Part shown: positions 2,274 through 29,816 of the stretch, piece after piece
Layout: the number at the start of each line of letters is the position of its first letter
How positions within the stretch are numbered: position 1 is the first letter of the stretch
NCBI RefSeq assembly: GCF_013122565.1
Contig: NZ_CP053258.1
Direction: 5' to 3' (one strand)
Origin: Escherichia coli
GTDB taxonomy: Bacteria; Pseudomonadota; Gammaproteobacteria; Enterobacterales; Enterobacteriaceae
Length of the DNA stretch: 64,000 nucleotides
Notes under the pieces: generated by a model
Told to the model about the DNA's origin: nothing
Databases searched by the model: none
What the model saw: only the letters and a program-made list of their open reading frames with translations
Translations under genes and position numbers: made by a program

Positions 2274-2449
2274 GTTTTGCATTTATCAGCAGCCTGAATT
2301 TTAACCCTCTGGCGGCTTTACAGTACCTTACGCTATACTAGCCACTGAAAATGCCGGTTCACTTTCTTCGAATCGGCTTTCAATGTGTATTTCACACAAA
2401 TTAATCAACTTCCCCTTCCGAGGATCTGGCCTGAAAGGTCGGATAAGAT

Positions 2450-4385: not shown

Positions 4386-4940
4386 ATGACCCTACGCAAG
4401 ATTCTGGTACTCACCTGCCTGCTGTTGCCGATGATGGCTTCCGCACATCAGTTCGAAACCGGTCAGCGAGTGCCGCCGATTGGCATTACCGATCGTGGCG
4501 AGTTGGTGCTTGATAAAGATCAGTTTAGCTACAAAACCTGGAACAGCGCGCAGTTAGTGGGAAAAGTGCGAGTACTGCAACATATTGCTGGTCGCACCTC
4601 TGCAAAAGAGAAAAACGCGACGCTGATTGAAGCGATTAAATCAGCGAAGTTACCGCACGATCGTTACCAGACCACCACCATTGTTAACACCGACGACGCG
4701 ATTCCGGGTTCCGGCATGTTTGTGCGCAGCAGTCTGGAGAGTAATAAAAAGCTTTATCCCTGGTCGCAGTTTATTGTCGATAGCAATGGCATCGCGCGCG
4801 GTGCCTGGCAGCTGGATGAAGAAAGTTCCGCTGTAGTGGTGCTGGATAAGGATGGTCGCGTGCAATGGGCCAAAGACGGGGCGCTCACTCAGGAAGAGGT
4901 GCAGCAAGTGATGGACCTGCTGCAAAAGTTGCTCAAATAA
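4386..4940 (+). CDS. ytfJ: Periplasmic protein YtfJ
   Basis: 184 aa ORF with N-terminal signal peptide MTLRKILVLTCLLLPMMASA; synteny. Confidence 0.9.
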   Translation: MTLRKILVLTCLLLPMMASAHQFETGQRVPPIGITDRGELVLDKDQFSYKTWNSAQLVGKVRVLQHIAGRTSAKEKNATLIEAIKSAKLPHDRYQTTTIVNTDDAIPGSGMFVRSSLESNKKLYPWSQFIVDSNGIARGAWQLDEESSAVVVLDKDGRVQWAKDGALTQEEVQQVMDLLQKLLK

Positions 4941-5002
4941 TGGCAACAACATAGATTCTGCAAAAATAATATTCCCCTGTCGATACCTATGGGATAGGGG
5001 AA

Positions 5003-5785
5003 TTAAGTGTATGAGTTCTTACGCCGAACTAATACTGGTAACGCTAGTTGCTCTTTTTTAAACGCCTCAATGGTAGATTTATATTTCTCGCAAATCTCCT
5101 CTTCGGTAATATCACTATCTACCGCCAGATTCGCACTTACTATCGCATCCACTTGTTCGGCTAATTCCACTTGTTGGCAACCTGCATTAACCAGAAAATT
5201 ATAAATAAGAGAGTAATCTTCATCCTCCAAAACAACAAAGGAACCATTACGAAAACGTTCATCCCCTCCATAGATTGTAAGCACAGAGCCCAAAGATTCT
5301 ATGACTATGGCAAAATTATCATCAATTATTTTTTCGTAAATATACCATCCATCGCATTCTTTAATTCCACCTCCTGGTATTTGGAGTTCAAATTTACCCC
5401 GTTTTAATTTGCTTACTATATCCTCCAATAAGGCATAACCTAAAGACACGTCACCAAACGCCTGGCGAATATAACCTTTAATCCTTTTCGGTATGTCAGA
5501 CTGTTTTTTCTGTAAAATATCCCAGGCATACAATCTTCTGTTTTGTTCTAACGGAAACTCGCGGTTTTTGAAATCCATGAATGAGTTATACTCATTTATT
5601 GTTATGGGAATTTCTTCGTATTCAAACCCACTGCCTCGCAATGTCATTGTATATTCGGCACCGTTATCTTTAAGGCTGAAACTGATAAGAAACTTATCCA
5701 TGGCGTTAACAGTTTCATTTTTTGATGAAAGTACCTGATAACTATTTTTATCAATCTGAGTTGCGCAACGAAAGAACTCCCTCAA
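5003..5785 (-). CDS. Hypothetical acidic cytoplasmic protein, AT-rich orphan occupying the ytfI position
   Basis: 260 aa ORF starting at TTG (in-frame TAG 8 codons upstream); no recognisable motif; visibly AT-rich coding and flanks; weak ribosome-binding signals. Confidence 0.55.
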   Translation of the reverse strand: MREFFRCATQIDKNSYQVLSSKNETVNAMDKFLISFSLKDNGAEYTMTLRGSGFEYEEIPITINEYNSFMDFKNREFPLEQNRRLYAWDILQKKQSDIPKRIKGYIRQAFGDVSLGYALLEDIVSKLKRGKFELQIPGGGIKECDGWYIYEKIIDDNFAIVIESLGSVLTIYGGDERFRNGSFVVLEDEDYSLIYNFLVNAGCQQVELAEQVDAIVSANLAVDSDITEEEICEKYKSTIEAFKKEQLALPVLVRRKNSYT

Positions 5786-6152
5786 AGTTAAGAGGCTATC
5801 ATAATTCTAAACCCAATCTTTTTCCCTAAATGCATGCTGAATATTATTAAAAAAATTGTTTGAATGTGTTTTTGTATGCGATGATTTTACAAATAACTCC
5901 ACCGCACCAATAAAATTATTGTGTCTGATCCTGGGTAACATATGGCTACCTTATTTTATTTGGTTATTTTATGTCGCCATTAAATATCTCATTATAGAAG
6001 TAAACTATCAAAAAACGCTCATTATTAAAATGTTACTTATTAGCAATTGAATTTTTGCACTTTAAATACAATCTCTTTTTATTTATAACTTTTTAGGTTG
6101 GGAGAAATCAGCATGGCAGAATCAGGAAATACACTGTTTCTGCCATCTGAAT

Positions 6153-6893
6153 TTAGTAAATAGACACTCTGAACCCCGGATTCAGGAACGACTCGCGCGG
6201 AGTGTAATCCAGCGGTTTACCCTGCCAGTCGTGAACGTGCGCTCCGGCAGCTGCAGCCACAGCATGACCGGCGGCGGTGTCCCAAATATTCGTTGGTCCG
6301 AAGCGCGGGTACAGCTGCGCCTGTCCTTCCGCCACCAGGCAGAATTTCAGCGAAGAGCCGATGGACGTGGTCTGATGTTCGCCAAGCTGTTGCAGATACT
6401 CTTTCAGCTCCGCATCTGCATGGGAACGGCTGATAACCACCAGCGGCGGGCGCGCATCGCGGACCTGAATCTGCTTGCGCACACCGCACTCTTCTTTCCA
6501 GGCTTTGCCTTCTGCCGCGCTGTACATTACGTTCATTACCGGCGCATACACCACACCTAAAATCGGTTTGCCGTGGTCGATGAGCGCAATGTTAACGGTG
6601 AATTCGCCATTACGTTTAATAAACTCTTTAGTACCATCCAGCGGGTCTACCAGCCAGTAACGCTGCCAGTGCTGACGGACTTCCCAACCGGGAGGATCTT
6701 CTTCAGAAAGGACCGGAATATCCGGTGTCAGCGTACGTAAACCGTCCATGATAACGGTGTGTGCGGCAATATCCGCTGCCGTTACCGGAGAATTGTCCGC
6801 TTTGCTGACGACGTCCATCGGTTTCGTCCCGTCGTAGACCTGCATAATGGCATCGCCTGCATTCCGTGCAAGCTGGCATACTTGATCTAACAT
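6153..6893 (-). CDS. cysQ: 3'(2'),5'-bisphosphate nucleotidase CysQ
   Basis: 246 aa, inositol-monophosphatase-family motifs ([15 protein letters not shown]); C-terminus ...GFRVSIY. Confidence 0.93.
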
Positions 6894-7082
6894 TTCTCCA
6901 CCTCGTCTCTGTGAGCGGTGTTAACTTATTGTTTTACTTATACCCTATCGTTAATGAATGCGCCAACTGTGATAGTGTCATCATTTTCAAAGCGTAAAAT
7001 TGTGGCATTCTTCACTGTTCTATAAGTAAGACGTTTATTCTCCCTTTTCTTTCGTATTCCCGATGATAAAAGGATGTCCCTG

Positions 7083-9026: not shown

Positions 9027-9044
9027 AACACTTCTTTTTCGGCC

Positions 9045-9236
9045 TATAAATCATCAACCGCATCCGGCACTTTTGGCGGATGCGCTGCTGGCGCATCTTA
9101 TCCGCCCTACAAGCCATGAACCGTTGACCATATAAGCGCAGCGCATCCGGCTCTTCCTGGCGGAGGCGATGCTGACGCATCTTATCCGCCCTACAAGCCA
9201 TGAACCATAGACCGGATAAGCGCAGCGCATCCGGCA
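9045..9236. repeat. Composite REP/BIME cluster with tandemly duplicated ~85 bp unit
   Basis: Two copies of gatgc(t)g...gcgcatcttatccgccctacaagccatgaacc...ataagcgcagcgcatccggc. Confidence 0.8.
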
Positions 9237-9237
9237 G

Positions 9238-9402
9238 TTATGCCGCACGTTCATCCCGCACCGCTAACACCTCGGGCAAATTCAACTCAATCCAGTCCGC
9301 CAGTGCAGCAACCTTTTCGCTCACCTGCTCGCCCAGCGGCGTGAGGCTGTATTCCACATGCGGCGGCGTTACTGGCGTTGTCCGGCCAATGTTAATAACT
9401 AG
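9238..9402 (-). pseudogene. ytfH: Truncated remnant of HxlR-family regulator ytfH (C-terminal ~45 codons only)
   Basis: Minus-strand frame reads ...PVTPPHVEYSLTPLGEQVSEKVAALADWIELNLPEVLAVRDERAA*; in-frame stop at 9403-9405 leaves at most 54 codons, no N-terminal HTH region. Confidence 0.55.
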
Positions 9403-9500
9403 TTAATTAAAGTGGCATCCTCCCGCATCCTCTCTGATAATGACGGGATGCCGGGAGCAATCATGTCTGCTTCCTGAACTTTCTTCTGACAGATCAATGG

Positions 9501-11276: not shown

Positions 11277-12770
11277 TCAGTCTTTCAATGGACGTAATTC
11301 ATTGTTGTAACTGGTGTAACTGCCTTCAACGGTAAGTAGATTGCCGTTTTCATCAAGATGCGCCGCATTGAGTTGTCGAGTTTCATTACGCCGCTTCGCA
11401 TCACGAACCAGCCCATCGCCTACGTAATAAATATAGTGGTCATCATGAGCAAAGGTATCTGATAATTGACCATTGGCGTATTTAAACCACGTCCATTGGC
11501 CTTTAAGCTCAAATTTCTCAACCGTGTCTTTATCAATAAAATACGTATAGCGATCGTCATGTGCCAAATAATTTAATGTTGTGCCATCGGGGCTTTTATA
11601 CCACTGCCATTGCCCATTGATATCAAAAATAGTCACATCATCCCTTGCAAGGAAATAAACTTTATTCCCTACAACATTAGCACCTTCCTGTAATTCTTGT
11701 TGCGGGTCTGGTAAATGAATGACCGAAAGCGTTTTTTCGACCGCAGAAATATACTTCACCAGATAGAGCGAATCTTTATATTGCGCCACATTCTTCGTCA
11801 GCGGGCGAAAATATTCCGGATCAACATCAGGAATGGTCGCAACCCGGCAGTCATTGGCACGCCAGGAAGCATCACGCGTCATCCAGGTTACTTTATCCCG
11901 CTGTAGGTCAAATGTATTCCGGCAATCTTTACCGAACGAATAACGTTTCTCCCCGTCCTTATCGCGATAAATCAGCAGGGAACCGGCTATCCAGCGCACA
12001 ATATGAAAGGTGTCCGGATCGGCGTCGATGGCATCTCCGTTCACAAAGACCTGCGATTTTGTCCGCCAGATTGTATCCCAGGGTGCGGGATGCCCCCAAC
12101 TTTCACAACTGTTTGGCAAATAAAGAATATTCCGTTGGGCCCAGGGTTTAATATCAAGAATAGAATATCCTTGGGTACTACCCAACCAGCGTCCCTGAAA
12201 GTAAAGATTGCGACGATCTTTCAGCACATCCGCGGAATCAACTGAATTCATCCTCCCCCCCACCTGTTGCAGCGAATCCATATCGACCTGCTTTTCGCCG
12301 TGATTATCATCCGTGCGTTCGCCGTCAAAATAGAGGCTGTCTTTATCGGCAGCAAAACGCCCCCATGCGCGGAATGTTGCGGCATCGACTTTCGGTGTTC
12401 CCGGCGGGTTCTGAACTATTTTCCCTGCCCATAAAATATGGCGACCATCGGTCAACCAGTCGAAACGCCAACTGCTGTTAGTTCTGATATTAGTGCCAGC
12501 ATCTACCTGAACAAAATCATTATTGATATCATCAGGAGAATCATATTTATCATCAGTGCCGTTGGGTACGCGGCGAAGTTGCTTAAACTTCACCTGCGAT
12601 AAATGAATATCCGGAAAATAGAGTCCGTAACCATCACTATCTTCAACGATATATTTTGTGCCTTGCCCCCACGGCTGGTAGTAAAACGCAGCATAAGGCA
12701 CACCAGAGCAAGCTATTGAAGCGGTTGAAAATAAAGCCAGTGCGAGACAAACAGGTTTAATTGGCAACAT
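11277..12770 (-). CDS. Secreted repeat protein, paralogue A (DKNYY-like repeats), function unknown
   Basis: 497 aa; N-terminal signal peptide MLPIKPVCLALALFSTASIACSG; repeated D-K-x-x-LYF/DA-x-TF blocks; ATG with AGGA RBS. Confidence 0.8.
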   Translation of the reverse strand: MLPIKPVCLALALFSTASIACSGVPYAAFYYQPWGQGTKYIVEDSDGYGLYFPDIHLSQVKFKQLRRVPNGTDDKYDSPDDINNDFVQVDAGTNIRTNSSWRFDWLTDGRHILWAGKIVQNPPGTPKVDAATFRAWGRFAADKDSLYFDGERTDDNHGEKQVDMDSLQQVGGRMNSVDSADVLKDRRNLYFQGRWLGSTQGYSILDIKPWAQRNILYLPNSCESWGHPAPWDTIWRTKSQVFVNGDAIDADPDTFHIVRWIAGSLLIYRDKDGEKRYSFGKDCRNTFDLQRDKVTWMTRDASWRANDCRVATIPDVDPEYFRPLTKNVAQYKDSLYLVKYISAVEKTLSVIHLPDPQQELQEGANVVGNKVYFLARDDVTIFDINGQWQWYKSPDGTTLNYLAHDDRYTYFIDKDTVEKFELKGQWTWFKYANGQLSDTFAHDDHYIYYVGDGLVRDAKRRNETRQLNAAHLDENGNLLTVEGSYTSYNNELRPLKD

Positions 12771-12802: not shown

Positions 12803-13960
12803 TTATTTAAATAAGGGTTTAAGACCGCTCGGGGGTTGCTTCACCGATGACCAACCTCCCTTACCTAAGTTATAACGCAGCCATTTACCTTGTTGGACGT
12901 GCTCTTTCCCAACTCCAGTCGCTTGTTGAGTGTAAAGCTGCCCGTCTGTTGATATAAACGTGTTAGTTAATCCCCAACTACCACCTGCTTCAAGTGAGTC
13001 GGTGAGATCCTCTGGCTTGAGATTAATCAACTCCCCTTCGCCCAGGGCGTTGGTTGTGACTTTATAAATTTGGTTCTTATATAAACCGGTATTGCGAACA
13101 AACAGATAAAAATATTCCGGATCAACTCGCGGCAGCGTTTCATAAATACACTCACTGCCCGCTGGAGTGGCTTCATGTTTGAGCCAGGACACGTTATTCA
13201 GACCAATATTAAAAGGTGCACAGCGATAGCTGGTATCCTCCAGCTCATAGTCACGCTCACCGCTTTTATCGCGATAAACTAAGCGTTCGCCAGGCATCCA
13301 GCGGATTATCTGAAAGGTTTTACGATCGGCGGGCAGCGGCTTGCCATTAACAATCACCTGCGAATTTGTCAGCACAACAAATTGCAGGGCGGAATCATGC
13401 CGCACGATTTGAAACCCGTCAGCGCTTCCCAACCAGTGCCCCTTATGCCAAAGACTATTTTTATCACGCAGTAAATTCCAGATGTCCGTCTCTTCAAGCG
13501 TTGACATATCCACCTGCTTATCACCGCTATTATCATCGGTACGCTGACCGTCAAAATAGATACTGCGTTTATCAGCAGCGAAAGCGCCGAATGCCTGAAA
13601 ACTGGCAGCGTCGACTTTAGGTTTACCGGGGGGGTTTTTCAGGACTTTGCCAGACCAAAGGACAGAGCGTCCATCAGTGAGCCAGGCATGCTGGCAATCC
13701 CCCTCGTCATCACAATCGAACTTATCGGGATTAAAATCTGACAGTAACCGGCAATCTTGTTTATTGGTTAAATTGGCAATGCGCCAGAGGCGGGAAAAGT
13801 TAACGTCCAGCAGTTCGGAGAGGATCTCATCTTTTTGCCCCTTCTCTTCGGCAACGTAAACCGTGCCTTTCTCCTGCTGGCGGTAATAAAAATCCGCGCC
13901 CCAGGAAGGTGAAATGGAGAGCGGTAATGCGGTGATTAATAACCAACTTCGCGTAACCAT
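12803..13960 (-). CDS. Secreted repeat protein, paralogue B (DKNYY-like repeats), function unknown
   Basis: Signal peptide MVTRSWLLITALPLSISPSWGA; block WLTDGRSVLWSGKVLKNPPGKPKVDAASF...DKRSIYFDGQRTDDNSGDKQVDM nearly identical to paralogue A; start placed at ATG 13960 (track ORF starts at TTG 13984). Confidence 0.75.
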   Translation of the reverse strand: MVTRSWLLITALPLSISPSWGADFYYRQQEKGTVYVAEEKGQKDEILSELLDVNFSRLWRIANLTNKQDCRLLSDFNPDKFDCDDEGDCQHAWLTDGRSVLWSGKVLKNPPGKPKVDAASFQAFGAFAADKRSIYFDGQRTDDNSGDKQVDMSTLEETDIWNLLRDKNSLWHKGHWLGSADGFQIVRHDSALQFVVLTNSQVIVNGKPLPADRKTFQIIRWMPGERLVYRDKSGERDYELEDTSYRCAPFNIGLNNVSWLKHEATPAGSECIYETLPRVDPEYFYLFVRNTGLYKNQIYKVTTNALGEGELINLKPEDLTDSLEAGGSWGLTNTFISTDGQLYTQQATGVGKEHVQQGKWLRYNLGKGGWSSVKQPPSGLKPLFK

Positions 13961-14079
13961 AGTGATCTCTGAAATGAGTGGCAAAGATCCACAGTAAGTC
14001 CGCGCCTGGGGGGATGTCGATGACGGTAAGTTTTTTTAGGAATGTATAAAGACAAAGGAGATTGCTGACAAAGTGAGCT

Positions 14080-18430: not shown

Positions 18431-19222
18431 ATGAAATCAAAAAAACCCGTTGCTATTATTACCGGTGCTGCCCGTGGTATCGGTAAAGGTTGTGCTATTG
18501 AACTAGCTCGCGCTGGATTTAATCTTCTAATAAATGATCGACCAGATAAAGACAGCATCGAAAAACTTAAAGCAACTCAAAAACTATGTATCGCTGAAGG
18601 TGTTGAAGTCATAACGTTTCCAGCCAACATTGGCGATTTAACGTTACATGAAAAGATGCTCGACGCGGCGCAAAATCAGTGGGAGCGTTTGGACTGCCTG
18701 CTCAATAACGCCGGAATTTCGGTGAAAAAGCGTGGTGATATTCTCGACCTGGAGCCAGACAGTTTCGACGATAACATTGCCATCAATACCCGCGCACCTT
18801 TCTTCCTCGCCCAGGCTTTCAGCAAGCGCCTGTTGGCGCAACCCAAACCAGAAGCTGAACTACCGCATCGCTCAATTATTTTTGTCAGCTCAATTAACGC
18901 CATCATGCTGGCGATGAATCGAGGTGAGTACACCATTGCCAAAACAGCTGTATCTGCCGCTGCCCGCCTGTTTGCCGCACGTCTTTGTGAAGAGCAAATT
19001 GGCGTTTATGAAATCCGCCCAGGTTTAATCAAAACCGATATGACTATTCCAGCAACAGCTTATTACGACGAACTGATCGCTAAGGGGTTAGTGCCATGGG
19101 GTCGTTGGGGTTTTCCACAGGACATCGCCTCCACTGTCCGTGCAATGGCGGAAGGCAAACTGATTTACACCTGTGGTCAGGCGGTCGCCATCGACGGCGG
19201 CTTAAGTATGCCACGCTTCTGA
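18431..19222 (+). CDS. Short-chain dehydrogenase/reductase (SDR) family oxidoreductase
   Basis: TGAARGIGKG nucleotide-binding motif, NNAG, catalytic Y-x3-K (YTIAK). Confidence 0.88.
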   Translation: MKSKKPVAIITGAARGIGKGCAIELARAGFNLLINDRPDKDSIEKLKATQKLCIAEGVEVITFPANIGDLTLHEKMLDAAQNQWERLDCLLNNAGISVKKRGDILDLEPDSFDDNIAINTRAPFFLAQAFSKRLLAQPKPEAELPHRSIIFVSSINAIMLAMNRGEYTIAKTAVSAAARLFAARLCEEQIGVYEIRPGLIKTDMTIPATAYYDELIAKGLVPWGRWGFPQDIASTVRAMAEGKLIYTCGQAVAIDGGLSMPRF

Positions 19223-19231
19223 GGCTGAACC

Positions 19232-20074
19232 ATGAGAGATCTGTTACATCGCCCGGATTTATTCAGCATCAATACCGCGACGCTGGGCTATAAAATGCCT
19301 CTGCCCGCCCTTATTGATGCTTGTGCCGCACGCGGCATCGGTGCGATTGCCCCCTGGCGCAGAGAGTTGCAGAGCGAAGATCTTCAGCAAATCGTCCGCC
19401 AGCTTGCCGCCAATAACATGAGCGTTTCTGGTTTATGCCGTAGCACCTACTACACCGCGCCGACGCTGGCAGAGCGCAAGCTGGCGATTGATGATAACCG
19501 CCGGGCGCTGGACGACGCAGCGATGCTGAACGCCGCCTGTTATATGCAGGTGGTTGGCGGTCTGCCAACGGGCACTAAAGATCTGTATGAAGCGCGGGAG
19601 CAAGTGAAAGAAGGGGTTCGCCAGTTGCTGTCACATTCGAAAGATGTCGGCGTGCCGATTGCACTGGAGCCACTGCACCCGATGACTGCTGCCGATCGCT
19701 CTTGCCTCTGCTCGCTACGTCAGGCGCTGGACTGGTGTGATGAACTCGATCCCGATGGTGAGTTTGGCCTCGGCGTGGCGGTCGATGTCTACCACGTCTG
19801 GTGGGATCCGGATCTCACCAGTCAGATCCTGCGCGCTGGAAAACGGATCCTCGCGTTTCATGTTTCCGACTGGCTGGTGCCGACGACCGATCTGGTCAAT
19901 GATCGGGGAATGCCGGGAGATGGCGTCATCAATATTCCGTCAATTCGTCGGCTGGTTGAAAACGCCGGATTTAATGGTTCTATCGAATTAGAAATATTTT
20001 CTTCATTCTGGTGGGAAAAGAATATCAACCAAATACTGGATAAAAGTATTAACGGACTTTCTTATTATTGTTAA
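19232..20074 (+). CDS. Sugar phosphate isomerase/epimerase-like TIM-barrel protein (xylose isomerase-like fold)
   Basis: 280 aa; family assignment by overall pattern only; 9 bp after SDR stop. Confidence 0.6.
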   Translation: MRDLLHRPDLFSINTATLGYKMPLPALIDACAARGIGAIAPWRRELQSEDLQQIVRQLAANNMSVSGLCRSTYYTAPTLAERKLAIDDNRRALDDAAMLNAACYMQVVGGLPTGTKDLYEAREQVKEGVRQLLSHSKDVGVPIALEPLHPMTAADRSCLCSLRQALDWCDELDPDGEFGLGVAVDVYHVWWDPDLTSQILRAGKRILAFHVSDWLVPTTDLVNDRGMPGDGVINIPSIRRLVENAGFNGSIELEIFSSFWWEKNINQILDKSINGLSYYC

Positions 20075-20223
20075 ACATCACACTATATTTTTCTCTCGAA
20101 ATTAGTTGATTGTTTAAATTTGCATGTTTTAGAAAGTTATGAGTGAAGTAATAAATCAATAAATTAAATATCTTACAGAGCATTGCGAGTGTTAGGTATT
20201 TATAATCAAATAGGGATTGGCAT

Positions 20224-21765
20224 ATGAGCAAGATTAATACTGCAGAAATACTGGTCGCAGGTATTAAAGATGGCGCAACAATCGCCATTAGCGGTAATGG
20301 CGGTGGAATGGTTGAAGCCGATCATCTACTACAAGCTCTGGAAACACGGTTTCTGGAAACCGGGCATCCATGTAACCTTACGCTTATACACTCATTAGGT
20401 GTAGGAGACCGTGAACACAAAGGCAGTAACCGTTTTGCTCATAAAGGAATGTTAAAGCGTGTTATTGCAGGACATTTCACATGGTCACCAAGAATGCAGG
20501 CTCTGGTTAAGAATAATGAGGTCGAGGCTTATTGCTTTCCTAGCGGAGTTATTCAGACATTATTACGTGAAATAGGCGCTGGACGTCCAGGACTGTTCAC
20601 CCATGTCGGGGTAGGAACTTTTATTGATCCGCGTAATGGAGGAGGGAAATCTAATTCACGAACGACAGAGGATCTGGTAGAGCTAATTGAAATTGATGGA
20701 GAAACAAAGCTACGCTATCGCCCATTTAAAGTTGATTACGCAATTGTGCGCGGTACTTATGCGGATTCACGCGGTAATATTAGCCTGGAAGAAGAAGCCG
20801 TCGATCTGGATTGCAATTCTATAGCTCTAGCTGCCCATAATAGCGGTGGTAAAGTCTTTGTGCAGGTACGTGACATTCTTGAAACAGGTGCGATTGAACC
20901 CAGACGAGTAAAAATACCCGGAATCTTAGTCGATGGCGTCGTGGAATATAGAGATCAACAACAAACATATCTTGGTGGTTACGATCTTACTATCAGCGGC
21001 CAGCATCGTCGTCTTTGTTCTCAAAACTCTATTGAACTGGTTTCAAACCCAATACGTCGATTAATTGCACGCCGTGCAGCACGCGAGTTAGTTGCTGGCG
21101 CATCCACAAACTTTGGCTTTGGCATGCCAGGAGGGATCCCAGGTATTGCTCTGCGTGAAGGAGTCCCTTTTGATACCCTTTGGCTCAGCGTGGAACAAGG
21201 TGTGCATAATGGCATGATGCTGGATGATGCTCTGTTTGGCTGTGCTCGCAATGCTGATGCGATAATTCCTTCTCTTGAGCAGTTTGATTTTTATAGTGGT
21301 GGTGGTGCCGATATAACTTTTCTCGGTATGGGGGAAATGGATCAGTATGGAAACGTGAATGTTTCCCATCTCAACAATAACCTTATCGGACCAGGCGGTT
21401 TTATCGAAATTGCACAGAATGCCCATAAAGTGGTGTTCTGCGGCACGTTTGATGCCAAGGGTAGCAAAATAAACGTCACAAATGCGGGCCTGGAAATCAT
21501 TCAATCCGGCCAGGTAGCAAAACTTGTTTCACAAGTAGAAGAGATAACTTTCAGCGGAGAATATGCGCAACAACGTAAACAGGATGTGTTGTACATTACC
21601 GAGCGCGCTGTATTCCAGTTAACGCCACAGGGTGTGGAACTAATTGAGGTTGCCCCTGGCGTGGACATTGACCACGACATTCTGCCGTATATGGCCTTCC
21701 GTCCAATTATCAAGCACCCACGCCTGATGGAAAGTAGTCTGTTTACGCCGATGGAGGATGCATGA
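20224..21765 (+). CDS. Acyl-CoA:acetate/3-ketoacid CoA-transferase, fused alpha-beta (YdiF-like, family I)
   Basis: 513 aa; clear colinear similarity to E. coli YdiF as recalled (GHFTWSPR, GVGTFIDPRNGGGK, FDFYSGGGADITFLGMGEMDQYGNVNVS, ITERAVF). Confidence 0.85.
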   Translation: MSKINTAEILVAGIKDGATIAISGNGGGMVEADHLLQALETRFLETGHPCNLTLIHSLGVGDREHKGSNRFAHKGMLKRVIAGHFTWSPRMQALVKNNEVEAYCFPSGVIQTLLREIGAGRPGLFTHVGVGTFIDPRNGGGKSNSRTTEDLVELIEIDGETKLRYRPFKVDYAIVRGTYADSRGNISLEEEAVDLDCNSIALAAHNSGGKVFVQVRDILETGAIEPRRVKIPGILVDGVVEYRDQQQTYLGGYDLTISGQHRRLCSQNSIELVSNPIRRLIARRAARELVAGASTNFGFGMPGGIPGIALREGVPFDTLWLSVEQGVHNGMMLDDALFGCARNADAIIPSLEQFDFYSGGGADITFLGMGEMDQYGNVNVSHLNNNLIGPGGFIEIAQNAHKVVFCGTFDAKGSKINVTNAGLEIIQSGQVAKLVSQVEEITFSGEYAQQRKQDVLYITERAVFQLTPQGVELIEVAPGVDIDHDILPYMAFRPIIKHPRLMESSLFTPMEDA

Positions 21766-23834
21766 GTCAGCTTGATGACACCATCCTTGATGCGCTGACA
21801 CACGTCACTTTCCCAAAGGGGTTTGTGTCAGCAGAGCCAACACCAATTGTCACCGTTGAGGATGTTGATTACCCGATCTGGCACGTTGATGCGCTGGTCG
21901 TTGGTAGCGGCGCAGCAGGATTACGTGCGGCAGTTGAACTTAAACGCCGCCAGCAAAATGTGCTGATCGCTACCGCCGGGTTATATATGGGGACGTCGGC
22001 ATGTTCTGGTTCCGATAAACAGACACTGTTTACCGCCGCTACCGCGGGCAACGGCGACAACTTCACCAAACTGGCAGAGGCACTGGCGAGCGGTGGGGCG
22101 ATGGATCACGACACCGCTTATGTCGAAGCGGTAGGTTCTCTGCACACTCTAGGCGGGTTGCAATATCTTGGTCTGGAATTACCGGAAGATCGCTATGGCG
22201 CGATTCTTCGTTATCAAACCGACCATGACGAAGCTGGGCGTGCAACCTCGTGTGGGCCGCGTACCTCAAGGTTAATGGTGAAAGTGCTGTTGGAAGAAGT
22301 ACAGCGCCTCGCCATTCCAGTGTTGACCAGTGCAACAGTGATTAAACTGCTGCATCAGCGTGACGAAAACGGCGAAGACCGCGTGGCAGGGGCAATCCTC
22401 GCGACCGGTCATCGCGCCCATAACCCATGGGGGCTGGCAATTGTGACTGCGCCCAATGTGGTACTGGCAACGGGCGGACCGGGCGAGCTTTATCGCGACA
22501 GTGTTTATCCACATAAATGCTTCGGCTCGCTGGGGCTGGCGCTGGAGGAAGGTCTGACGCTAACCAATCTGACCGAAAGCCAGTTTGGTATAGGCACACC
22601 GCGCAGCACGTTTCCGTGGAATTTGTCCGGCACCTATGTGCAGGTGATCCCGTATATCTATTCCGTGGATGCTGAGGGTAACGAGTATAACTTCCTCGCG
22701 GATTACTATCGCACCACCCAAGAGCTGGCTTCAAACATCTTCCGTAAAGGCTATCAGTGGCCGTTCCACGCCACGCGGGTAATGGATTTTGGCTCCAGCT
22801 TGTTAGATATGGCGGTGGCGCAAGAACAGCAACATGGTCGTCTGGTGTTTATGGATTTCAATCGTAATCCTGAAGCGGTGCCTGGTGATCTACCCTTCTC
22901 ATTAGATCGACTGGACGACGACGTTCGCGCGTATCTGGAAAATAACGACGCTCTGGCACCATCGCCCATCGAACGGCTGCAACGAATGAATCCGCTGTCT
23001 ATCTCGCTGTATAAGATGCACGGTTACGATCTCACCACGCAGCCATTGCAGTTTGCCATGAATAATCAGCACATGAATGGCGGCATTGAAGTGGATATCT
23101 GGGGACAAACATCCCTGCCCGGTTGTTTTGCAGTGGGAGAAGTAGCCGGTACTCACGGCGTTACCCGACCTGGCGGCGCGGCGCTGAATGCCGGACAGGT
23201 TTTTGCCGTGCGTCTGGCGCGCTTTATTGGTTGCACACAAAAGCGGTCTGTTGAGGAGGATGTCGCGCAGCTGGTAGCCTCATCTCTGCATATAGTCAGA
23301 GAAGTTATCGCTCAGGCACTGGCAAACGAGAACGGAATGGCGCTGGTAACGGTGAAAGAAAAAATCCAGGCGCGAATGTCTGATTACGCTGGATTTATTT
23401 GTCATGCCGATAAAGTTCGTCACGCCACCCGTGACGCCCTGCTGTTAAGTGAGTTTGTACAACAACACGGTTTGACCATCAAACATGTTGGCGAAATTGC
23501 CGAACTATTTATGTGGCGGCATATGGCACTGACTTCTGCCGCCATATTGACACAATTGACGCATTATATTGACGCAGGTGGCGGCAGTCGTGGGGCGCGG
23601 ATAATTATTGATCACTATGGGGAAGGTCTACCACAAACTCGACAGGGTGCAAAAGAAAAATGGCGTTTTAGATTGGAGTCTGAAAATGAAAGAGAATCAC
23701 GAGCAACGATTCAGCTTAACAATGGAGAATTTATAATAAATAAAAACAAGATACGTCAAATAATCAATTTCAAAAATAATTATTTTGAAAAAAATTGGCC
23801 GGAGTTTCTCCTTGGAGAAATCTATATAAAATAA
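21762..23834 (+). CDS. FAD-dependent oxidoreductase (fumarate reductase/succinate dehydrogenase flavoprotein-like), with unusual AT-rich C-terminal extension
   Basis: N-terminal dinucleotide-binding motif VVGSGAAGLRAA; 690 aa; ATGA start/stop overlap with upstream CoA-transferase. Confidence 0.8.
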   Translation: MSQLDDTILDALTHVTFPKGFVSAEPTPIVTVEDVDYPIWHVDALVVGSGAAGLRAAVELKRRQQNVLIATAGLYMGTSACSGSDKQTLFTAATAGNGDNFTKLAEALASGGAMDHDTAYVEAVGSLHTLGGLQYLGLELPEDRYGAILRYQTDHDEAGRATSCGPRTSRLMVKVLLEEVQRLAIPVLTSATVIKLLHQRDENGEDRVAGAILATGHRAHNPWGLAIVTAPNVVLATGGPGELYRDSVYPHKCFGSLGLALEEGLTLTNLTESQFGIGTPRSTFPWNLSGTYVQVIPYIYSVDAEGNEYNFLADYYRTTQELASNIFRKGYQWPFHATRVMDFGSSLLDMAVAQEQQHGRLVFMDFNRNPEAVPGDLPFSLDRLDDDVRAYLENNDALAPSPIERLQRMNPLSISLYKMHGYDLTTQPLQFAMNNQHMNGGIEVDIWGQTSLPGCFAVGEVAGTHGVTRPGGAALNAGQVFAVRLARFIGCTQKRSVEEDVAQLVASSLHIVREVIAQALANENGMALVTVKEKIQARMSDYAGFICHADKVRHATRDALLLSEFVQQHGLTIKHVGEIAELFMWRHMALTSAAILTQLTHYIDAGGGSRGARIIIDHYGEGLPQTRQGAKEKWRFRLESENERESRATIQLNNGEFIINKNKIRQIINFKNNYFEKNWPEFLLGEIYIK

Positions 23835-23937
23835 ACGCCTTTTAAATCGGTAGCTATTAAATAAATATTTTATGATTTGCAAAATTCACGCTTTTACATT
23901 GTGAGTATTTTCTATTGATAATATCAAAGGTTTAATC

Positions 23938-25218
23938 ATGAAAAAAATCAAGCACTATAGGTGGCATATTATCGTCTTAATATGTTTCATCACTGTAATT
24001 AATTATTTGGACAGAACAGCATTAGGCGTGGCCGCGCCCACAATAATGCAAACGATGGGGATAACTAAAGAGCAATATTCATGGGTTGTCAGTGCATTCC
24101 AGTTAGCATATACAATTGGACAACCTGTAATGGGATTCTTTATTGACCTTATCGGTCTGAAATTTAGCTTTTTCATTTGCATTATAATCTGGGGACTTGC
24201 CACTATGGGGCACGCATTAGCGGGATCCTGGCAAGGTTTGGCCTTTATGCGTGGCCTGATGGGAGTAAGTGAAGCCTCCGTCTTTCCCGCAGGGATAAAG
24301 ACTGTATCGACGTGGTTTCCTGCTAAAGAACGCGGTATTGCTGCGGGATTCTTCAACACGGGTACATCTCTTGGTGCCATGCTTGCTCCACCGCTTATTG
24401 CCTGGTGCATAATGTTCCATAGTTGGCAATTCGCATTTCTGGTTTCTGGCTGTCTGGCATTATTTGCGGCAGTGATGTGGTTTATCTTTTATAAAGACCC
24501 CAAAGATGCCAAAGGACTTTCTGAAGAGGAAAGACACTATATAGAGTCTGGGCAAGAAAAACATCTTGATTCTAATAAAAGTAAAAAAGCAACCATTCTT
24601 CATGTTATTAAAAAACGCAATTTCTGGGGTATTGGCATTACCCGTTTCCTGGCAGAACCAGCTTGGGGAACAATCAACTTTTGGGTACCTATATTTTTCG
24701 TTGAAACATTGCATTTCAGCTTAAAAGATATAGCAATGTTTATCTGGCTCCCGTTTTTATTAGGTGACTTGGGTTGTTTATCTAGTGGTTTTATCGCTAA
24801 GTTTTTTCACGATCGCGGGGTTAGCCTTCTTAATGCACGAAGAATTACATTTACATTCGCTGCAACAACGATGATGTCGATTGGTTTGGTTAGCATCGTC
24901 ACTAATCCGTACATTGCTGTATTACTAATTAGTATCGGTGCATTCTCACATCAATGCCTATCTACTGTTGTTGCCACTATGGGGGCCGATCTTTTTGAAA
25001 AAGAAGAAGTCGCAACAGTAGTTGGATTATCGGGAGGGTGTGGATATACAGGGCAACTGATATTTAATATATTCATTGGTGTATTCGTTGCTGCAATTGG
25101 CTTCTCGACATTCTTTGTGATACTTGCCTTCCTGGATATTATTGGTGCCATTATTTTATGGTCTGTAATTAGACCACCGAAACTTGTTGAACAAACAAAT
25201 TTAGTAACACAATCGTAG
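23938..25218 (+). CDS. MFS transporter, anion:cation symporter (ACS)-like, probable organic-acid permease
   Basis: 426 aa, 12-TM pattern, N-terminal YLDRTALGVAAP motif. Confidence 0.85.
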   Translation: MKKIKHYRWHIIVLICFITVINYLDRTALGVAAPTIMQTMGITKEQYSWVVSAFQLAYTIGQPVMGFFIDLIGLKFSFFICIIIWGLATMGHALAGSWQGLAFMRGLMGVSEASVFPAGIKTVSTWFPAKERGIAAGFFNTGTSLGAMLAPPLIAWCIMFHSWQFAFLVSGCLALFAAVMWFIFYKDPKDAKGLSEEERHYIESGQEKHLDSNKSKKATILHVIKKRNFWGIGITRFLAEPAWGTINFWVPIFFVETLHFSLKDIAMFIWLPFLLGDLGCLSSGFIAKFFHDRGVSLLNARRITFTFAATTMMSIGLVSIVTNPYIAVLLISIGAFSHQCLSTVVATMGADLFEKEEVATVVGLSGGCGYTGQLIFNIFIGVFVAAIGFSTFFVILAFLDIIGAIILWSVIRPPKLVEQTNLVTQS

Positions 25219-25269
25219 TTTTTATTTTTACCTATAGAATTTTAATCGAAAAAAAATAAAGGAAAGATT

Positions 25270-25749
25270 ATGTCTCAAACAGAAATTATTCTTCCTTCAG
25301 GAAGAGAACTTACTCCAGGTGAATATGGTTATGCCAATCTGGAACCTGGCGATCACTACCAGACTCCCGGTCTTAACGTAACAGAGTCACAGATTGTTGC
25401 TTTTGCGGGGATAAGCGGTGATTTTTTCGATGTTCATATGGATGATGAATTTGCAAGGGAAAAAGGATTTCCAGGACGCATTGCCCACGGTCTGTTAGGT
25501 TTAGCATTGACGGACGGCCTGAAGAATCGTTCTATTGTACGTTTACGTGCAGTTGCTACATTAAACTGGAACTGGTCATTCTGTGCACCATTATTGCCTG
25601 GAGATCATATTCACGCCGTTATTACTGTTGTTAAAAAACGCCCCACCAAACGTGAAGACCGAGGCATTGTGACTTTTGCTTTACAATTGTTTAATCAACA
25701 TGGAAAGATAATACAGCGAGGCGAAACTCTGCTGATGATGATGCAATAA
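25270..25749 (+). CDS. MaoC-like (hot-dog fold) dehydratase / enoyl-CoA hydratase
   Basis: 159 aa; GRIAHGLLGLALTDGL hot-dog motif; AGGAAA RBS. Confidence 0.8.
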   Translation: MSQTEIILPSGRELTPGEYGYANLEPGDHYQTPGLNVTESQIVAFAGISGDFFDVHMDDEFAREKGFPGRIAHGLLGLALTDGLKNRSIVRLRAVATLNWNWSFCAPLLPGDHIHAVITVVKKRPTKREDRGIVTFALQLFNQHGKIIQRGETLLMMMQ

Positions 25750-25868: not shown

Positions 25869-27137
25869 CTAAATTGACGACCTGAATGCCTCTGCCATTA
25901 ACTCTTGCTCACGATCAGGTAATCTAAGACGCTCGGCAATAGTTTGCCACTGACTGACAATCCCTCTAAAATTAGCAATAATGTCATCAGCTTCCGTCAA
26001 ACTAAGTCGAAAATACTCTGCAACTTCTCTAGCTAATTCCAAATCAAGTGCATTATCATTTTCCGTAATATTAAGCTTTAAACCGTCAGATCTGGAAACA
26101 GGATTCAAATCATATGCTTCAGAAAGCCGCCAACCTTTTCCCGGTATCAAGATATATCCATGATTACGTAAATGATCATCGGTATTAGAAACAAGAATAT
26201 TAAAAACAATTCTGGACCAGAGTTCTTTAAGGTCAGTATTGGTCTGCGCTCCGTGCCTGATAAGAACATCTGCTAATTCCAGATAACTTACACCTGTAGA
26301 GGCATCTTCACCATCCTGATGTCTGGTTAGTGTCATAGCCGAAGCAAAATGCAGACGCCTTCCCGCATTAGTGCGGTCAAAACGACGAACCATAAAACAA
26401 TGGTAATTGCTGGCAAATTTATGCGCCTGAGCAGGTGCAACATTCAGTCCACAGCCAACAGCAAGCGCATTAACGACCATTTCCCATCCACCAACATCAT
26501 ACTCATCTTTTGCACTGGGAAATTTAGCGATGTAAAGATGTCCGGCTTCATCAACCACACTGGCTTTTGGACGTGCACCCCCTAATGATCCCCCCGGAGC
26601 GATTAGCATTCTTAACCATTTTTGCCCCATGAGTTCTTTATTATCAGGATCTTCTTCAATTGCCCGGCTAGCCCTTTCCAGACTCGCTATTTCGGTAAAT
26701 GGTGGGGCTGCAACATTAATGCGGTTATCAAGAAACTCTCCAGCGTCTTCACGTTTGTATCGAAGAGCCCCAACCCGATAAAGATCATGAACACCTAATA
26801 GATAGTCAGACTCATAAAGGTGGGAGTCTTTATCAAATAACCCATCTCGAATATCCCTCTCAAAACGACGCTTCATTAGCATACGCCCCCAACGATCCGG
26901 GCAGGAATCACTAAACGCACCAAATTTATCCTTTGGAGGAATTGGGTACTGTGCTCCCTCATACAACATTATTTCAGGATCTAACTGAATGAAATTAAGT
27001 GCACGATCTGCAAGCGCCTTTTTATCGTACTCAAACTCAAATATCTCACGCGCCCGAGTGCGACGACTGTGTAAATAACCAATACGCGCAGGACCATCCA
27101 GGCCTTCCCAATCCGCATACACTCCGATTAATGCCAT
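25869..27137 (-). CDS. HipA-family serine/threonine kinase (type II toxin-like)
   Basis: 422 aa; P-loop-like GGSLGGARPK and catalytic NTDDHLRNHG motifs in HipA order; AAGGA RBS. Confidence 0.8.
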   Translation of the reverse strand: MALIGVYADWEGLDGPARIGYLHSRRTRAREIFEFEYDKKALADRALNFIQLDPEIMLYEGAQYPIPPKDKFGAFSDSCPDRWGRMLMKRRFERDIRDGLFDKDSHLYESDYLLGVHDLYRVGALRYKREDAGEFLDNRINVAAPPFTEIASLERASRAIEEDPDNKELMGQKWLRMLIAPGGSLGGARPKASVVDEAGHLYIAKFPSAKDEYDVGGWEMVVNALAVGCGLNVAPAQAHKFASNYHCFMVRRFDRTNAGRRLHFASAMTLTRHQDGEDASTGVSYLELADVLIRHGAQTNTDLKELWSRIVFNILVSNTDDHLRNHGYILIPGKGWRLSEAYDLNPVSRSDGLKLNITENDNALDLELAREVAEYFRLSLTEADDIIANFRGIVSQWQTIAERLRLPDREQELMAEAFRSSI

Positions 27138-27150
27138 AATTAATTTCCTT

Positions 27151-27642
27151 TTATCGGTTTTTTATCGGTTTTTTTATCGGTTGTAATAGTGCAGCAAGAG
27201 AGGTTGACGTTTCCCCTGGAATAGTTGGCGTTGAGTCTTTTGCCAGTGCTGTTAAATCCGTGGTGAGATGACCTTCTTTCTCGCGTTTCGTCTGAAATGA
27301 GGCTGTCTGAATCCCTTCTTCATTCTTAACTGATGAACGAGAAAGCCCTCTTTTTTTAATCAAACGGGAATCCTGGAGCTGATGCCCTAAGGCGTCTTCA
27401 GCTGCAAGCTTATTTAAATCCGTTTCCAGGCCCAAAACCTGCATCACAGACAAATATGCCCCTATCGTGACCCCTGCACTTCCTGCCTCCAGAGAACGCA
27501 ATGTGATTGGCGACATCCCTGCACGCTCAGCAACTTGCTTTGCGGTTAGCTTACGTCGTAAACGAGCAAGTTTCAGACGCTCACCAAATTCACTAAGCAT
27601 CTGATTCGTATAAGGGAGTAACGGTGCTGTTTTTTTACCCAT
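27151..27642 (-). CDS. XRE-family HTH protein (HipB-like putative antitoxin) with long low-complexity C-terminal tail
   Basis: 163 aa; HTH ~residues 16-75 ([23 protein letters not shown]); 13 bp upstream of kinase gene on same strand. Confidence 0.75.
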
Positions 27643-29094: not shown

Positions 29095-29508
<414 letters not shown>

Positions 29509-29816
29509 TTATTCAGCCTCCTGTCTGGGTCAGCCGAATCCCGGGGAGGCAAGGAACGTGTTAAAGGTCGGCTGAAAAATGACGCGTTATAGTACTGACA
29601 TACCCCGCTAAACTCAAGGGCAGAGCCGAAATAAATCTCCCCTTTCGCAAATAACCTCTAAACCGCTGATTTGGAGTTCATCACACTTCATCATGGTGTT
29701 TTTTCGAACAACTGCATCAGAAATGGTCACCATCAACTTCTTTATCATTGATTAAAATTAAATCAGAAGATCATCACAGAGGAGAGCACACAAAGTCAGC
29801 CGTCGAGGAGGTATCT

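Follow-up and report, generated by a model that had tools for sequence, protein, structure and literature searches.

A premature amber codon in ytfI of an Escherichia coli genome and the AT-rich insertion that carries it

The reading frame at the ytfI position

Between cysQ and ytfJ of an Escherichia coli genome (contig NZ_CP053258.1), the ORF list of the 64,000-nucleotide stretch analysed here (the window) holds a 260-codon ORF with a TTG start (5003..5785, minus strand). Does it represent an orphan gene, an altered allele of ytfI, or the remains of that gene? A sequence-only reading had described an orphan with weak translation signals, possibly a diverged or N-terminally shortened ytfI allele. 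The locus is very probably (probability about 0.88) an orthologous ytfI pseudogene, that is, a known gene that an ordinary mutation has inactivated.

The gene order, with ytfJ at 4386-4940 (plus strand), ytfI at 5003-5941 (minus strand) and cysQ at 6153-6893 (minus strand), agreed with the K-12 annotation. As expected of an orthologue, ytfI lay where the 3′ ends of cysQ and ytfJ converge and on the cysQ strand, and the surrounding genes (paeA/ytfL, ytfK, ytfJ, cysQ and cpdB) were those of the K-12 ytfL-cpdB region in reverse. The earlier placement at the ytfI position was therefore right, and so was the description of the DNA as AT-rich: block 5001-6000 had the lowest GC content of all 64 kilobases in the window. 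GC was 0.370 in the 260-codon ORF and 0.348 over positions 4941-6152, against 0.494 in the whole window, a deficit of the kind looked for in horizontally acquired DNA. It was 0.553 in cysQ and 0.521 in ytfJ. An AT-rich stretch of about 370 bp had also been placed upstream of the ORF, up to cysQ. Its size and composition held (367 bp; GC 0.292 at positions 5786-6152), but not its status as an upstream spacer, as 156 bp were ytfI coding sequence and the true intergenic distance was 211 bp.

K-12 ytfI has an annotated CDS of 939 nt encoding 312 aa (WP_000937655.1), the length that the sequence-only reading had given. A megablast search with positions 4941-6152 matched K-12 MG1655 at 95.7% identity, and alignment with K-12 ytfI (L001:2712-3650) contained no indels across the 1,212-bp segment. 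When the window, K-12 and VE-T9, the closest genome, were aligned together, the frame at 5003..5941 (minus strand) comprised 312 codon positions and a TAA stop, and it was broken at codon 45. There, TAG (5807..5809, minus strand; alignment column 345) stood in place of the Ser45 codon TCG, which is present in K-12, D9, EC2, VE-T9 and L098. The causal change, a coding-strand C to A transversion at window base 5808, was the sole frame-breaking difference from K-12. Translation of 5003-5941 accordingly gave the full YtfI sequence with a single stop, at position 45, and not the uninterrupted frame of about 312 codons that a ytfI orthologue should have.

The start of the gene was retained. The alignment ran from end to end and included the ATG (5939-5941), preceded by a Shine-Dalgarno-like AAGG (5949..5952, minus strand) 7 nt upstream of position 5941; the sequence around this start is TAACCAAATAAAATAAGGTAGCCATATG. 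Both the AAGG and its spacing were kept in K-12 and VE-T9. From this ATG, 44 sense codons are followed by TAG (5807..5941, minus strand), and the translation, MLPRIRHNNFIGAVELFVKSSHTKTHSNNFFNNIQHAFREKDWV and then the stop, agreed with the intact alleles P0002 and D9. Relative to the intact 312-aa proteins P0001, P0002 and K-12, the stop falls early and the part that is lost is conserved, as is typical of a nonsense pseudogene.

The 260-codon ORF corresponded to ytfI codons 53-312, its TTG being Leu53. No Shine-Dalgarno sequence was found in the 25 nt preceding the TTG at 5785 (TTAGAATTATGATAGCCTCTTAACT). The in-frame TAG limits the stop-free run to 267 sense codons, or 268 codons with the stop, the figure noticed at the outset; at the local composition a run of 267 stop-free codons is expected by chance at about 3e-10 per start. 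The encoded 260-aa protein was acidic, as described (pI 4.82, 42 acidic versus 32 basic residues), with a GRAVY of -0.34. No transmembrane segment is expected, because mean hydropathy over 19 residues peaked at only 1.28 in the K-12 protein. As the K-12 ATG and AAGG were retained and codon 45 was mutated, the weak TTG start is best regarded as an artefact of ORF finding.

The facts of the sequence-only reading (an acidic 260-aa product, a TTG start lacking a Shine-Dalgarno, an in-frame TAG) thus all survived; its interpretation did so only in part. The signals of the gene are not those of an orphan, since the K-12 start and its AAGG are present; an indel-free alignment at 95.7% identity speaks against a diverged allele; and what looked like an N-terminally shortened allele is instead a remnant left by TCG to TAG at codon 45. 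The alignment with K-12 ytfI that it proposed gave the same start and one nonsense codon, and a disrupted frame, one half of what it had named as telling against its reading, was found. The window copy resembles K-12 ytfI in position, strand relationship, ATG, Shine-Dalgarno and nucleotide identity; it differs in codon 45 and in 19 amino acids (Nd = 19.0). Judged from its sequence, ytfI in the window is a null allele that would be unable to yield the 312-aa protein. The correct annotation is ytfI pseudogene (S45amber) and not a 260-aa hypothetical protein, an error that public annotations of related genomes do carry.

The AT-rich segment between cysQ and ytfJ

Similarity to E. coli genomes with an empty site (L004, L005) ended at window positions of about 6156 and 4925, delimiting an AT-rich ytfI segment (4926..6156) of about 1.23 kb and about 35% GC between the 3′ ends of cysQ and ytfJ. 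The insert took the place of some 12 bp at the ancestral junction and altered the C-terminus of YtfJ, which ends in LLQKLLK with the insert and in LLHKLINK at the empty site. A 1,901-bp query spanning both flanks matched 5,418 of 5,426 complete E. coli genomes, and its middle was present in 1,609 of these 5,418 (about 30%). The megablast search with 4941-6152 likewise found the interval in 1,622 of 5,426. In E. coli genomes without the segment the matching stretch was 681 bp long, with an 11-bp overlap between cysQ and ytfJ.

GTDB species representatives were scanned with YtfJ, yielding 80 Enterobacteriaceae loci whose junctions were checked by tblastn. In 73 of the 80, cysQ and ytfJ abutted or overlapped with no ytfI between them; these included Citrobacter, Salmonella, Klebsiella, Raoultella, Enterobacter, Kosakonia and E. 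whittamii. Because the tight junction is so widespread, the empty site is taken to be ancestral, as expected where DNA has been acquired horizontally, and the absence of ytfI from these representatives indicates that the segment is an Escherichia-only insertion. The suggestion of horizontal acquisition was therefore well founded, since only about 30% of E. coli carry the segment and other enterobacterial genera lack it. L012, a representative labelled E. coli and part of a divergent Escherichia lineage, carried a ytfI of 69% identity, and there both the border hairpins and the altered YtfJ end were shared with the window. For the related allele in L006, dS was 0.63-0.71 in ytfI and 0.58-0.66 in cysQ. 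Near-equal dS in the two genes and shared junctions fit one old insertion that was then inherited vertically, and the present distribution fits a scenario in which presence and absence were later sorted or shuffled by recombination.

The segment lacked the marks of a genomic island: it contained no integrase or transposase, and ytfI was its only long ORF. No tRNA was found anywhere in the 64-kb window, no target-site duplication or direct repeats were evident at the segment junctions, and no Rfam family was detected in the segment. A mobile-element origin was considered and rejected, as tblastn gave no phage match. Four matches labelled as plasmids were non-mobilizable records of 0.66-4.9 Mb, and hence chromosomal.

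Several elements within the segment resemble those of a transcription unit. A strong hairpin follows the cysQ stop (6108..6150, minus strand; RNA fold -21.4 kcal/mol), with z = -5.2 and none of 200 shuffles as good. It was kept in the 69%-identity allele of L012 and is a probable transcript end or insulator structure for cysQ. The leader between this hairpin and ytfI had a GC content of 28%. It includes a promoter-like TTGATA-17-GATATT with an upstream TG (5983..6011, minus strand), about 40 nt upstream of the ATG and a match to consensus only; promoter-like sites in the region did not exceed those in shuffled sequence (6 found, 5.1 expected). At the other border a terminator-like hairpin, UUCCCCU...AGGGGAA (4971-5003, within an element at 4959..5003, minus strand), adjoins the ytfI stop and is followed by a U-rich tract, AUAUUAUUUUUG. 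Lying between the convergent ytfI and ytfJ, it was kept in K-12 and L012 and folded at -11.9 kcal/mol on the minus strand (z -1.2) and -17.6 kcal/mol on the plus strand (z -2.1); a simple terminator scan made no call at this hairpin. What these data show directly is hairpin energies and sequence conservation; the promoter and terminator roles of the elements are putative. With its leader, Shine-Dalgarno and ATG, 312-codon ORF and border hairpins, the segment looks like a self-contained one-gene module.

The ytfI gene and its AT-rich, H-NS-bound insertion in K-12 are already known. K-12 ytfI has been described as a segment specific to K-12, bound by H-NS and missing from strains SE11 and SE15 (PMC4720273, S10 Fig legend), with H-NS binding that reaches cpdB, cysQ, ytfJ and ytfK only if ytfI is present (PMC4720273). 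Such binding to the K-12 copy supports the earlier suspicion of H-NS silencing. The ytfI region has also given disputed sigma-32 ChIP signals (PMC3870955). Like the H-NS-silenced acquired E. coli genes of Higashi et al. 2016 (PMC4720273), ytfI is AT-rich, patchily distributed among strains and highly diverged at non-synonymous sites compared with its core neighbours. Unlike that set, its segment carries a single gene in about 1.2 kb and is without integrase, transposase, adjacent tRNA or direct repeats. It is a clean, small case of an H-NS-bound, lineage-restricted ORFan that was gained once and repeatedly lost or broken. Since this picture of gain and then loss is already in the literature, the window contributes just one more private allele.

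Other cargo was seen at the same junction in a few species. In E. albertii (L016:4792-5949) it held a 385-aa pentapeptide-repeat protein in DNA of 33% GC, and in Citrobacter youngae (L038:4676-6631) a 298-aa membrane protein with a Cys/Gly/Ser-rich tail together with a radical-SAM/SPASM enzyme. A Kluyvera junction (L070:4556-5461) held a Peptidase_S11-like protein, and a cysQ/ytfJ gap of about 911 bp, similar in size, was present in L072. These loci suggest that the convergent cysQ/ytfJ junction is an insertion hotspot for small cargo without mobility genes. A broader proposal, which we regard as tentative and on balance doubtful, is that intact YtfI is a maintained Escherichia-restricted ORFan of undescribed fold and function, kept as a presence/absence polymorphism from before E. 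coli parted from a divergent Escherichia lineage, and that the junction is a recurrent landing site reached by an uncharacterised insertion route. If so, the amber allele of the window would be a snapshot of the loss phase in a cycle of gain and loss.

Other ytfI alleles, selection and alternative explanations

Other E. coli carried ytfI at the same locus and with the same junctions, as 303-aa, 319-aa and 306/307-aa forms and as frameshifted copies. The nearest haplotype (D9, EC2, VE-T9 and L098) differed from the window segment at 5-7 substitution sites, plus indels; besides the amber, the 1.2-kb segment had four private substitutions relative to these relatives. D9 and EC2 (L091, L092) had a 21-bp in-frame tandem duplication that repeats KKQSDIP at codons ~145-158 and gives a 319-aa YtfI. 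The 303-aa form, found in other lineages, stops at a TAA, nine codons short. YtfI tolerates variation in length both internally and at the C-terminus. The changes in these other alleles were an in-frame duplication, a late stop, a T-run deletion and multiple indels, and the codon-45 amber was seen in the window only.

In several genomes the gene was broken in other ways. VE-T9 (L002) and L098 shared a 1-bp deletion in a T7 run (window position 5855, codons ~29-31). RM9513 ytfI is annotated as frameshifted, with premature stops that break the frame; L096, whose lineage occurred in at least 58 assembly-collection blocks, had several N-terminal indels; and ETEC1738 had IS1 in place of ytfI and part of ytfJ. 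The laboratory strain JM83 is also reported to bear a ytfI mutation (PMC11148124). These sequences indicate that ytfI decays recurrently across E. coli lineages. The T7-run deletion, found in two independent assemblies, may reflect decay at a slippage-prone site or an error in sequencing the homopolymer; T7 is intact in the window.

In a collection of 15 billion proteins, the 260-aa protein occurred once (HAK9704693.1). We considered that its source might be a public genome that shares the amber, and rejected this: the contig, L098 (GCA_013793405.1), has TCG at codon 45 and is truncated by the T-run deletion.

Selection was estimated by the Nei-Gojobori method from four ytfI alleles, with dS of up to 0.86. 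Over the whole gene dN/dS was 0.23-0.41, compared with 0.01-0.03 in the neighbouring cysQ, and over the first 52 codons it was 0.12-0.31 among intact alleles. In a protein alignment of K-12, P0001, P0002, P0003, P0008 and P0010, which were 68-99% identical to the reconstructed window protein, residues 1-60 were among the better conserved parts, even in alleles of 69-78% identity. A stop-free run of 312 codons at the local composition has a chance probability of about 8e-12. The dN/dS values indicate that the intact alleles encode a real protein; given the conserved N-terminus and low dN/dS, ytfI is fast-evolving yet constrained and its K-12 start is genuine. The gene is dispensable in that about 70% of complete E. 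coli genomes are without it. However, long-term purifying selection means that intact YtfI is useful somewhere, so this dispensability holds for some backgrounds only.

The locus is best explained as follows. In an Escherichia ancestor the segment entered the tight junction at which cysQ and ytfJ converge, and in the window genome the C to A change at 5808 turned Ser45 into an amber. Translation from the ATG at 5941 would then halt after 44 residues and leave at most a 44-aa peptide; the 267 codons past the amber are not expected to be translated because they lack a ribosome-binding site. Such a pseudogene was presumably tolerated because the gene is dispensable and, judging by the K-12 copy, largely silenced by H-NS.

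The amber is private to the window's source, so a miscalled base in the assembly could account for it. No exact match to 81 nt centred on the amber was obtained among 5,426 complete E. coli genomes, and 30 complete genomes matched with one mismatch, which in D9, EC2 and VE-T9 was the C at 5808. All 30 carry C there, as would be expected if the gene were intact in nature and the TAG had arisen through an error in sequencing or assembly, or very recently by mutation in the laboratory. We nevertheless think this unlikely, as substitution errors are uncommon in finished sequence and the four other private substitutions accompany the amber in the same 1.2 kb. Disruption has also occurred independently in sister genomes that share the haplotype, and further gene decay is seen in the window, where ytfH is truncated and qorB is absent. 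Least likely is a functional shortened YtfI isoform, made from the TTG at 5785 or from an in-frame start downstream of it. The 267 codons are indeed still open, gene callers have predicted an identical 260-aa product elsewhere, and the protein is identical to the matching part of the closest intact haplotype, bar the 7-aa KKQSDIP duplication of the latter. An open remnant is, however, what a recent lesion should leave, and the TTG is not preceded by a Shine-Dalgarno. The 52 codons that such an isoform would forgo are under purifying selection in intact alleles. Moreover, other genomes reach the same truncated ORF through unrelated frameshifts, which argues for decay and not for a selected isoform.

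The segment might instead matter as DNA, either as a nucleation patch for H-NS or as a hairpin insulator of the cysQ and ytfJ transcripts, with the ORF being incidental. The ancestral genes, overlapping by 11 bp, leave no room for a terminator, and the insert brings a strong hairpin after cysQ (z -5.2) and another after ytfJ/ytfI. The published spread of H-NS binding to neighbouring genes only where ytfI is present (PMC4720273) points the same way. Against this, dN/dS of 0.23-0.41 over dS of up to 0.86 reflects selection on a protein, an ORF of 312 codons in DNA of 36% GC is not incidental, and most E. coli and most enterobacteria do without the segment. We therefore consider a role as DNA very unlikely, and prefer to read the locus as a ytfI pseudogene.

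Relatives of intact YtfI and other features of the window

YtfI was not assigned to any curated family. Searches of Pfam gave nothing above cut-off, with only LisH below it, and NCBIfam gave nothing. The best PADLOC match was Cas6b (E 8e-4) over just 40 residues, which was judged compositional; PHROGs gave one marginal match to a family of unknown function (E 1.7e-3); and a profile search against PDB sequences had a best E of 0.9. A word-indexed search of 5.8 billion proteins detected 17 matches, all at least 69% identical and all from E. coli or Shigella wherever the source names an organism. An exhaustive phmmer search of 1.84 billion cluster representatives returned only fragments of the same family and a chance match to a 1,100-aa repeat protein. 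Neither of the two large protein searches found a homologue outside Escherichia/Shigella.

An AlphaFold2 model built from a 7-sequence alignment was unreliable (mean pLDDT 46.5, pTM 0.34); it had N-terminal helices, a beta-rich core at residues ~180-240 and C-terminal helices. A Foldseek search of PDB with this model gave noise (best E 0.03, TM 0.13-0.23). The original observation that the protein has no recognisable motif was thus upheld, with no domain and no confident fold from remote-homology search and structure prediction. Together, the evidence supports intact YtfI being a soluble, mixed alpha/beta cytoplasmic protein, fast-evolving under purifying selection and confined to Escherichia. 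We infer a selectable but non-essential role that is normally repressed by H-NS. A weak hint comes from overexpression of ytfI from the ASKA library, which allowed growth at 3x MIC of NaOCl (PMC8228696). We guess, with low confidence, that YtfI serves in a niche or a conflict at the level of strains and not in core metabolism.

Elsewhere in the window, about 475 bp between cpdB and an EamA/ytfF ORF (9027-9500) contained REP-like repeated sequence. Only the C-terminal 39 codons of ytfH were present (9238..9357, minus strand), so that ytfH appears truncated, and qorB (ytfG) appears deleted. Two adjacent ORFs of 497 and 393 aa (11277-12770 and 12803-13984, both minus strand) lay between ytfE and a cycA-like gene and had no Pfam match at 1e-5. 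K-12 is not known to have genes at that position. Region 18431-25749, with GC ranging from 0.39 to 0.55, held a set of metabolic genes that are apparently not of K-12 type: an SDR, a xylose-isomerase-like TIM barrel, a 513-aa CoA-transferase, a 690-aa FAD_binding_2 flavoprotein and an MFS transporter. A HipA_C kinase domain was present in a 422-aa protein (25869-27137, minus strand) that follows a 163-aa ORF upstream (27151-27642, minus strand), and this pair, in AT-rich DNA, is likely to be a HipBA-type toxin-antitoxin system.

Rfam families scoring above the gathering score were ES036 and STnc450 upstream of paeA/ytfL (2209-2251 and 2331-2388, plus strand), the ES239 sRNA between cysQ and cpdB (6960-7082, minus strand) and the RpsF leader (29488-29572, minus strand).
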